Assembly (NCBI GenBank): GCA_030668875.1
Contig: DAOVER010000081.1
Location: forward strand, 1-9,054
Origin: Candidatus Heimdallarchaeota archaeon
Lineage (GTDB): Archaea > Asgardarchaeota > Heimdallarchaeia > Heimdallarchaeales > Heimdallarchaeaceae
Reading direction: 5' to 3'
DNA: 9,054 nt
Shown: piece after piece, positions 1-1,392 of the stretch
Layout of the letters: every line of letters begins with the position of its first letter
Position numbering within the stretch: the stretch's first letter is position 1
The notes under the pieces: generated by a model
Seen by the model: only the letters and a program-made list of their open reading frames with translations
The model's database searches: none
What the model was told of the DNA's origin: nothing
Made by a program: the position numbers and the translations under genes

Positions 1-1016
1 AAGAGCTATTTTCGAGCTAAACAAGAGTGGAAGAAGAACCCTACATTGTTTTTTGCCATGCCTAGGCCACCTAGCTACAAAAAAAGGGACGGGGAAGTGG
101 TAGCCATCTTCACCAATCAACAGGCGAAGATAGTCAATGGATGGTTAGTGTTACCGAAGAAAGTGAAGTATACCTACAAGACAAGACTAACAGCTCAAGC
201 AGAGTTAAGAGAAGTAAGAGTTATTCCCCGAAGAACACACTATACCCTTGAACTTGTTTACTTGAAAAGTATACCCAATCTCAGGAAAAAGTTGATCAGA
301 AAAGGAGCAGTAGATTTAGGGATGGACAACCTTGCCGCTTTCGTGGATAACCTCGGAGGTCAACCGATTGTTATCAAAGATGCAGGGAAAGGGATAAAGT
401 CCATTACACAATATTATTTGAAAGAACAGAAGAAATTACAAATACAGTATAGTCAGCAGCAGAGAAAACAATTACAATCGAATAATCAATTGAAGTATGG
501 CCCAGCTTACATCAAACTTAAGGAGAAGTGGAGAAGAAAGCTAAGCGATGCTATCCATAAACTAACCAAGTATCTGGTTGACCTTTGGGTCGACCGAGGG
601 CTACATGAAGTAATTATAGGCTACAATGAGCTATGGAAACAAGGGGTACATTTCTGGAAAAAAACCACCCAGATGTTCGTCACCATCCCTTTCTTGAAAA
701 TCATCGATATGCTAAAATATAAGGAGCTGAGCGAGGGATAAAGGTAGAGACCATCCCTGAACAATACACCTCCAAGAGCAGTTTCCTGAATAATGAGTTC
801 CCCAAGGAACGGAAAAGGTACAAAGGGAAAAGGATCCACCGAGGGCTATTTCGTTCTGCTGCTGGTCACTTGATCAATGCTGACGTTAATGCCGCATATA
901 ATATATTGATAAAAAGCGATCCGAAAGCACTATCTAAACGTAGTGCGAACGGGGTAGGAGGATACGTGATGTATCCACTAAGAGTGAGTATAGAGTATCT
1001 TCGCTCTATATCATGA
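1..1016 (+). pseudogene. tnpB: RNA-guided endonuclease TnpB (IS200/IS605/IS607 OrfB), 5'-partial, -1 frameshift at ~724-725
   Basis: Frame 1 is open from base 1 (KSYFRAKQEWKKNP...PRPPSYKKRDG...FTNQQ) and contains RuvC-I 'AVDLGMDNLA' and 'IIGYNELWKQ...FVTIPF'. After AAG at 721-723 the homology continues in frame 3: (G)AERGIKVETIPEQYTSKSSFLNNE...KGKRIHRGLFRSAAGHLINADVNAAYNIL...GVGGYVMYPLRVSIEYLRSIS* (TGA 1014-1016). One extra G in 'aaggagct' would restore the frame. Confidence 0.95.
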
Positions 1017-1076
1017 CCTCTAAGCACACCATAAACCTAGCTTTGTCTAAGAAGACAAGAAGACAAATAGACATCA
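1..1076 (+). mobile_element. Right-hand part of a TnpB-encoding insertion sequence; right end near 1076-1077
   Basis: tnpB followed by a hairpin-rich tail that is visibly more GC-rich than the flank. An unrelated host reading frame resumes at 1078. The left end and any tnpA lie outside the window. The end position is inferred (+/- a few nt). Confidence 0.75.
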
Positions 1077-1096
1077 TAATGCATCTACAATATTTA
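912..1096 (+). ncRNA. TnpB omegaRNA (reRNA): scaffold ~912-1076 plus flank-derived guide ~1077-1096
   Basis: Overlaps the tnpB 3' end and the right end, as established for TnpB. Stems seen: tccg/cggg (920-923/950-953), gcactat/gtagtgc (927-933/940-946), ggatac/gtatcc (960-965/971-976), tatagag/ctctata (989-995/1004-1010), tagg/ccta (955-958/1036-1039), gtcta/tagac (1045-1049/1068-1072). Terminal acatcat (1071-1077) is complementary to gtgatgt (966-972), a possible pseudoknot. Confidence 0.75.
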
Positions 1097-1275
1097 CTAT
1101 CTTAAATGGAACGCATTTAGAAATGAAAGGGAGCATATTTGATTTTACTATCCTGCTTGAAGAAGTAACGGAATCATCTTTCACATTAACACTATTTACA
1201 TCACTAATTTTGTTTACAATTGTTCATCTTATTAGAAGAAAAAGGAAGAAGAATTTCTCCTTCATCATTCAATAA
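1078..1275 (+). pseudogene. Orphan 3' fragment of a C-terminally membrane-anchored surface protein, truncated by the IS
   Basis: Open frame NASTIFTILNGTHLEMKGSIFDFTILLEEVTESSFTLTLFTSLILFTIVHLIRRKRKKNFSFIIQ* with two N-glycosylation sequons (NAS, NGT), a hydrophobic helix and a basic tail. Same tail architecture as the 8311-terminating protein. It begins right at the inferred IS end. Confidence 0.6.
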
Positions 1276-1392
1276 GTCTATAACATGAATTTTATATGAA
1301 TTCTTTAGAAGTGCCTAGGTACATTATGGGGACGCCACATCCCCTCCTACACCGCCCACATCTTCTTGTAAAGATGCTTACGGTTCGCTTTT
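1273..1392 (-). ncRNA. Second, stand-alone omegaRNA-like scaffold / IS right-end homologue with no tnpB ORF
   Basis: The reverse complement of 1327-1392 aligns without gaps to 912-977 (42/66 identical), and all stem differences preserve pairing. Downstream motifs acctag, tctaa and atagac are shared with 1035-1072. The residual frame KSEP*ASLQEDVGGVGGDVASP* matches the TnpB tail KSDPKALSKRSANGVGGYVMYP but has stops. Confidence 0.8.

Follow-up and report, generated by a model that had tools for sequence, protein, structure and literature searches.

In TnpB elements of the IS607 family, such as CboIStron (10.1101/2023.11.20.567912) and ISXfa1 (PMC10711439), a core dinucleotide common to both ends is present once at the empty site and forms part of the RNA scaffold, and the flank differs from the element end at position -3 (TGGG and TCGG, respectively), the position that separates target from self in CboIStron (10.1101/2023.11.20.567912). 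The IS200/IS605 and IS1341-type elements (ISDra2; PMC10097598) include tnpB-only forms with an omegaRNA overlapping the 3' end of tnpB and a terminal pseudoknot just ahead of the guide, and a T/A-rich motif precedes the element on its 5' side. Stand-alone omegaRNAs and PATE-like elements (PMC10691335; 10.1101/2023.03.14.532601) are short, protein-less, multi-copy and mobile, with a scaffold homologous to tnpB elements of the same genome and a variable right flank as predicted guide, and stand-alone omegaRNAs acting in trans are already known (10.1101/2023.03.14.532601). TnpB-mediated retention works in its standard form through a guide that equals the right flank and targets the empty site (10.1101/2023.03.14.532601; 10.1101/2023.11.20.567912).

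The window analysed here comprises 9,054 nucleotides and corresponds to the entire contig C92 in a draft genome of 3.2 Mb (G000) from a Candidatus Heimdallarchaeota archaeon. It contains part of a tnpB-only element (element 1) and a protein-less element (element 2), whose right ends face each other across a gap of 202 nt. As in the IS607 family, both families have a matching AT at the two junctions (read from other copies for the left junction of element 1) and a single AT at the empty site, an RNA scaffold that includes this core, and a -3 difference between flank and end, here TTAT and TCAT. They differ from it in that the core is AT rather than the GG of characterised members, in that no transposase lies within the element, and in their imperfect inverted-repeat ends. 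Element 1 resembles the IS1341-type in gene content and in the overlap of its RNA with tnpB, and both families share the pseudoknot and the T/A-rich 5' motif; unlike IS200/IS605 elements, they have a core common to both ends and no subterminal left-end hairpin that we could see, and no Y1 HUH transposase was found in the 24 genus genomes (drafts 72–92% complete). Element 2 is akin to the PATE-like elements in all the properties listed above, but its ends are IS607-like rather than Y1 hairpins, and it has its own archaeal TATA box, an extra covarying 5' domain and an Asgard host. A search of the genome for the cognate transposase of either element found none: no serine recombinase lies in cis, and the IS607 recombinases of the genome belong to elements with other ends. 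A TnpB homologue with 41% identity in Methanohalobium sits after a serine recombinase gene. Judged by this IS607-linked homologue, the -3 rule and the core common to both ends, the two elements would work like IS607 derivatives, and both families show an IS607-like geometry with an AT core. A separate IS607 family of the same genome (C48:36202-38757, C87 and C15) pairs a serine recombinase with a 638-aa TnpB and has different ends.

Junctions of the two elements and the interrupted gene

Element 1 occupies 1–1077 (+), which represents its 3' three quarters, since the contig starts inside the element and its left junction is unassembled here. It ends in CATCAT, with the AT core at 1076–1077; similarity is lost at 1077 in more than 20 genome copies, and this end is fixed by those copies (approximately 20 or more) together with empty sites in three relatives. 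Full copies are ~1.42 kb long and contain tnpB as sole gene; their left ends repeat the right end imperfectly in inverted orientation and are flanked by TTAT in 21 of 24 copies. Throughout the family, a conserved structured right end is followed by variable flank. The tnpB gene of the window (1–1019, +) passes from frame 1 to frame 3 through a 1-nt deletion near 721–724, as assembled, upstream of RuvC motifs II and III, and the copy on C19 has one extra A at this site. Eight genome copies retain an intact tnpB with all three RuvC motifs (D-E-D), among which the TnpB on C46 reaches 156 bits against NF040570 (cut-off 100). The closest relatives of the window's TnpB (72–88%) are found in Ca. Heimdallarchaeota. 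Comparison of the window element with its nearest copy gave 143/150 and 174/180 identities.

Of note, the nearest copy, on C72 and ~10 kb upstream by synteny, has a right flank whose first 7 nt (C72:494–500) equal those next to the window copy (1078–1084; p 0.05–0.3), and the copies at C91:22124 and C94:38238 have 11 of 12 flank bases in common (p 0.004–0.03). Such sharing, recognised post hoc, might reflect target choice that is biased by the guide.

Element 2 is a 233-bp protein-less mobile element at 1280–1512 (-), as delimited by the alignment of its copies and by empty sites. Its AT cores lie at 1280–1281 and 1513–1514, its left flank is CTTAT and its left end is T-rich. Three full copies and one chimeric copy are present in the genome, with dozens more in the genus, where matches including this family were found in 16 of 23 genomes; copies stand at unrelated sites. 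The borders of the alignment are sharp (TTAT then A on the left, CATGTCAT then A on the right), TTAT flanks the left end in 26 of 35 scored copies, and right ends read TCAT. In silico excision of the element restores the sequence of the relatives with a single AT, leaving a clean empty site. The end would fall at 1279 if the near-invariant next A were counted; the terminal pseudoknot described below favours 1280. The two insertions of the window both stand at TTAT/CTAT sites.

These limits alter several positions proposed in a first-pass annotation, which had drawn attention to the locus. It had ended scaffold 1 at 1076 with a guide at 1077–1096, which copies and empty sites shift to 1077 and 1078–1097, and had ended scaffold 2 at 1273, where the same evidence gives 1280 (or 1279). 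Guide 2 accordingly starts at 1279, 7 nt from the start first assigned, and opens with 4 non-coding nt. The feature had been closed at 1392, whereas element 2 reaches 1512 and its RNA ~1457.

Between the two elements lies the 3' fragment of a metallophosphoesterase gene (1078–1275, +), consisting of the last 65 codons plus stop, which encode a linker, a transmembrane helix (19-residue hydropathy 1.97) and a basic tail. Its stop codon TAA was correctly placed at 1273–1275 by the first reading, although the supposed coincidence of this codon with the end of element 2 was undone by the alignment and the empty sites, which shift that end by 7 nt and away from the stop. Element 2 lies 4 nt beyond the stop, in intergenic DNA, so the gene was not hit by it. 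The view of 1078–1275 as the 3' piece of a surface-protein gene was upheld by homology to the C-terminal part of the gene in relatives, with DNA identities of 83–86.5% to three of them. The intact orthologue is a calcineurin-like metallophosphoesterase (PF00149, E 3e-12) of ~445 aa with a hydrophobic start (signal peptide), a C-terminal helix as membrane anchor and a basic tail; its frame is open over 443–459 codons in G010 and G016. Homologues are present in 21 of 24 genus genomes, in-frame stops interrupt the orthologues of G021 (directly upstream of the region equivalent to the fragment) and G002, and an intact paralogue with 43% identity lies on C82.

The uninterrupted allele, whose recovery had been proposed to settle the junctions, was found in G010, G016 and G021, each of which has the locus free of either element. 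It fixed both junctions, and the adjacent motif was read from the flanks. The empty junction of element 1 is TTTTAT or TTCTAT, then AATGCATC, and the insertion lies between Tyr and Asn codons (codon 377/378 in G010 numbering), which places it between the catalytic domain and the anchor. A PF00149 phosphoesterase with signal peptide and C-terminal anchor is thus split here by element 1. Contig C72 ends with the first 190 codons in open frame, and the central part of the gene is unassembled; with the insertion following the catalytic domain, the upstream half could give rise to a secreted enzyme that lacks the anchor. The fragment has kept its frame with no extra amino-acid change. Relaxed selection on it was considered and rejected, dN/dS being 0.23–0.42 compared with 0.39–0.54 among relatives, over 60 codons and with low power.

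Sequencing runs containing the DNA of the window come from marine sediment and a single study. In run X2, which may be the source sample itself, a single contig spans 1055–1355 with zero differences and covers only 23 nt of element 1. Runs X3 and X4 show breaks at 1281/1269 and 1536 and low coverage within element 2; no contig bridges the breaks so as to show the empty allele in these two runs, and a metagenome scan did not return the junction. Elsewhere in the window, an in-frame TAG (2503–2505) splits a DUF2229 activase-related gene, and a surface protein (6285–8311) is spread over three frames.

RNA scaffolds and predicted guides

OmegaRNA scaffold 1 (850–1077, +, with an approximate 5' limit) overlaps the 3' end of tnpB. 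Its segment 880–1077 folds with a z-score of -3.26, and a hairpin loop GUGAUG is complementary to the terminal CAUCAU, a predicted pseudoknot. The structured RNA 2 (1280–1457, -; ~176–178 nt) combines a 5' domain with a TnpB-type scaffold and ends in GUUAU, not GUCAU. It is preceded by a TATA-like box (1479–1486, -), which reads TTCATATA here and TTTA(A/T)ATA in most copies, where it stands ~25 nt ahead of a conserved GAAGGA start. Across 30 copies, 97.9% of the structure is paired, compared with 34–51% in slid controls, and ten pairs are changed on both sides. The support for this structure comes from the alignment, since the single-sequence fold is no better than shuffles (z -0.81). The Rfam search returned no relevant family. 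A model built from the element-2 copies matches ten tnpB 3' ends (E 8e-11 to 6e-7) and also scaffold 1 at 850–1019 (+; E 4.7e-10), which bears out the original proposal of two convergent scaffolds of omegaRNA type and makes them homologous.

In both families, the hairpin loop is complementary to the last five or six bases; in 44 copies, loop and end pair over 4–7 nt, and where subfamilies differ, the two change together. These pairs include 202 Watson-Crick pairs compared with 182 after shuffling (0/10000 shuffles), a figure that is not a probability, as the copies are related. The complementarity is as expected for the terminal pseudoknot known from TnpB RNAs (PMC10097598, PMC10711439). A chimeric copy (L023, G000:C95:94469-94755) joins the promoter and 5' domain of element 2 to a right end like that of another tnpB subfamily, with loop and end altered in step. 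Another copy (L024, G012:C81) carries a nested insertion of ~315 bp, the start of which is similar to the left ends seen in the large-TnpB IS607 family. Further, L114, L120, L124 and L024 represent one insertion of element 2 with identical flanks in four genomes, hence old and retained, and it is a candidate for a selected guide.

With the end of element 1 at 1077, the predicted guide 1 comprises 1078–1097 (+), the first 20 nt of the host fragment. It matches the empty allele over 20 of 20 positions in two relatives, where it follows TTTTAT or TTCTAT, and has no match in the C82 paralogue. The predicted guide 2 (1260–1279, -) consists of 4 non-coding nt followed by the antisense of the stop and last codons. 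Some 20 nt that follow the stop in relatives are absent at 1270–1279, between two AATAA words, a loss that may stem from a repair event or from ordinary drift.

Searches with both 20-mers, as advised at the outset, gave no credible viral target and, within the own genome, no further site combining TTAT with a near-perfect seed for either guide. No target of guide 1 was found among viral contigs. Guide 2 with TAT in front, searched against 2.9 million viral contigs, returned three exact 19-mers, all of which diverge after guide base 16 and two of which come from a single phage lineage (46% GC) in which we saw no archaeal features; they were taken as chance matches in a set of that size.

A near match to guide 1 (15 of 16) lies at 5751–5766 (-), with a mismatch at guide base 7 and no TTAT in front. 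Such a match exists somewhere in the genome for 43% of comparable 16-mers and is rare within 9 kb; this one is not conserved in the relatives searched and is probably due to chance. It lies ~30 bp from the edge of a repeated block, in which ~340 bp of an activase gene end occur twice (3763–4103 and 5799–6139; 85% identity) on either side of a PAS histidine-kinase gene. In relatives, the activase end occurs once and the kinase is absent from this place, and the arrangement looks like integration of related-strain DNA.

State of element 2 and origin of the convergent pair

The window copy of element 2 departs from the family at 11 of 154 conserved columns, while most copies do so at 0–6, with changes in the right end, the TATA box and the GTACA motif of the left end. 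It has the sole TTAT right end among 44. This end turns a G-C pair of the pseudoknot (123–179) into G-U, the only G-U there, and, at position -3, removes the distinction of a TCAT end from the TTAT flank. By its sequence, the copy looks decayed. A loaded RNA 2 whose target motif is TTAT, as read from the flanks alone, would cut its own locus, from which we infer that the RNA is probably silent or poorly loaded. Most of its helices are intact (175.7 bits, with the copy itself part of the model).

We consider it most probable (roughly 85%) that the locus reflects two unrelated transpositions of two related non-autonomous elements that came to lie 202 bp apart by coincidence. From the outset, the locus had been attributed to independent insertions of the two elements in or beside a single surface-protein gene, and the empty sites in relatives bear this out. 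Element 1 split the phosphoesterase gene and parted the enzyme from its membrane anchor, and element 2 landed in intergenic DNA past the stop. Each RNA would take its right flank as guide, by the known TnpB mechanism; TnpB supplied in trans by the eight intact copies would cut the empty site of each element, favouring retention or homing, and movement would have been effected by a serine recombinase in trans. Element 2 is probably the older insertion, as weakly suggested by its decay and intergenic position, the retained frame of the fragment and the closeness of element 1 to its nearest copy. A guide matching its own empty site is the default of every TnpB element and thus confers no special property here, and with the right ends facing each other, the 202 nt between them must supply both guides.

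The same neighbourhood was also read in the first-pass annotation as a hotspot. In this case, the region would be permissive, one insertion or the loss of the gene's function having made a second one nearby likelier or better tolerated, with no joint function. The pair is the only real close one among the 33 right ends of the genome, and its simulated chance is low at 1.7% for uniform insertion, rising to 5–10% if 30–15% of the genome tolerates insertions (figures per genome, before allowing for the many windows scanned). The gene also appears dispensable, given the in-frame stops in G021 and G002 and the intact paralogue, and a second near pair exists in another genome (L034), with element 2 ~380 bp from the left end of a tnpB element and in divergent orientation, so that mild clustering of the two families is possible. 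Against this, neither element occurs within 1.5 kb of any of 30 homologous loci, and ten relatives have no separate tnpB within 3 kb of an element-2 match (nearest ~3.5 kb), although these are fragmented drafts, which hide adjacent repeats. TTAT occurs 18 times per kb, so insertion sites are not limiting, and an intergenic element 2 needs no prior gene loss. Taken together, we regard a local hotspot as unlikely.

A compact two-guide locus aimed at the intact allele had likewise been envisaged. Developed further, TnpB in trans would load both RNAs and cut the empty allele at sites ~160–170 bp apart, and repair would copy both elements and drive the knockout allele; the pair would then be one two-cut unit of an AT-core, IS607-derived system, in which the protein-less RNA element would hitchhike with the tnpB element. 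Homologous scaffolds with most of their structure kept, the same apparent motif in both families, intact D-E-D TnpB genes in the genome and the full match of guide 1 to real empty alleles would all suit such a unit. The guides do match the empty allele, but a working locus is doubtful: with its GTTAT end, element 2 would present a functional RNA 2 with motif and perfect target at its own locus, and its TATA box and pseudoknot are altered. Moreover, the pair was found in no other genome searched, and the 3' end of element 2 is unlike those of the element-1 subfamilies, so that it may not be loaded by the same TnpB. Both homing by paired cuts and the hitchhiking arrangement therefore seem very improbable. 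Antisense regulation, in which read-through from one element silences the RNA of the other, has only the convergent geometry in its favour and is hardly credible, as the 3' ends of the 20-nt guides lie 162 nt apart so that mature RNAs would not overlap, and a minus-strand hairpin with T-run (1263–1239) could stop RNA 2, albeit weakly indicated (1 found, 0.4 expected).

Meaning for the element families

If the pair arose from two ordinary insertions, its convergence in itself teaches little. What the locus offers is empty alleles for both families, which fix their junctions, namely the TTAT motif, the AT core and the TCAT end. The elements are known kinds in a little-studied host, and the locus provides a ready test set, in which an archaeal TnpB is accompanied by a natural, promoter-bearing stand-alone guide RNA. 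Within it, the window copy of element 2 with its TTAT end constitutes a natural test of self/target discrimination at position -3.
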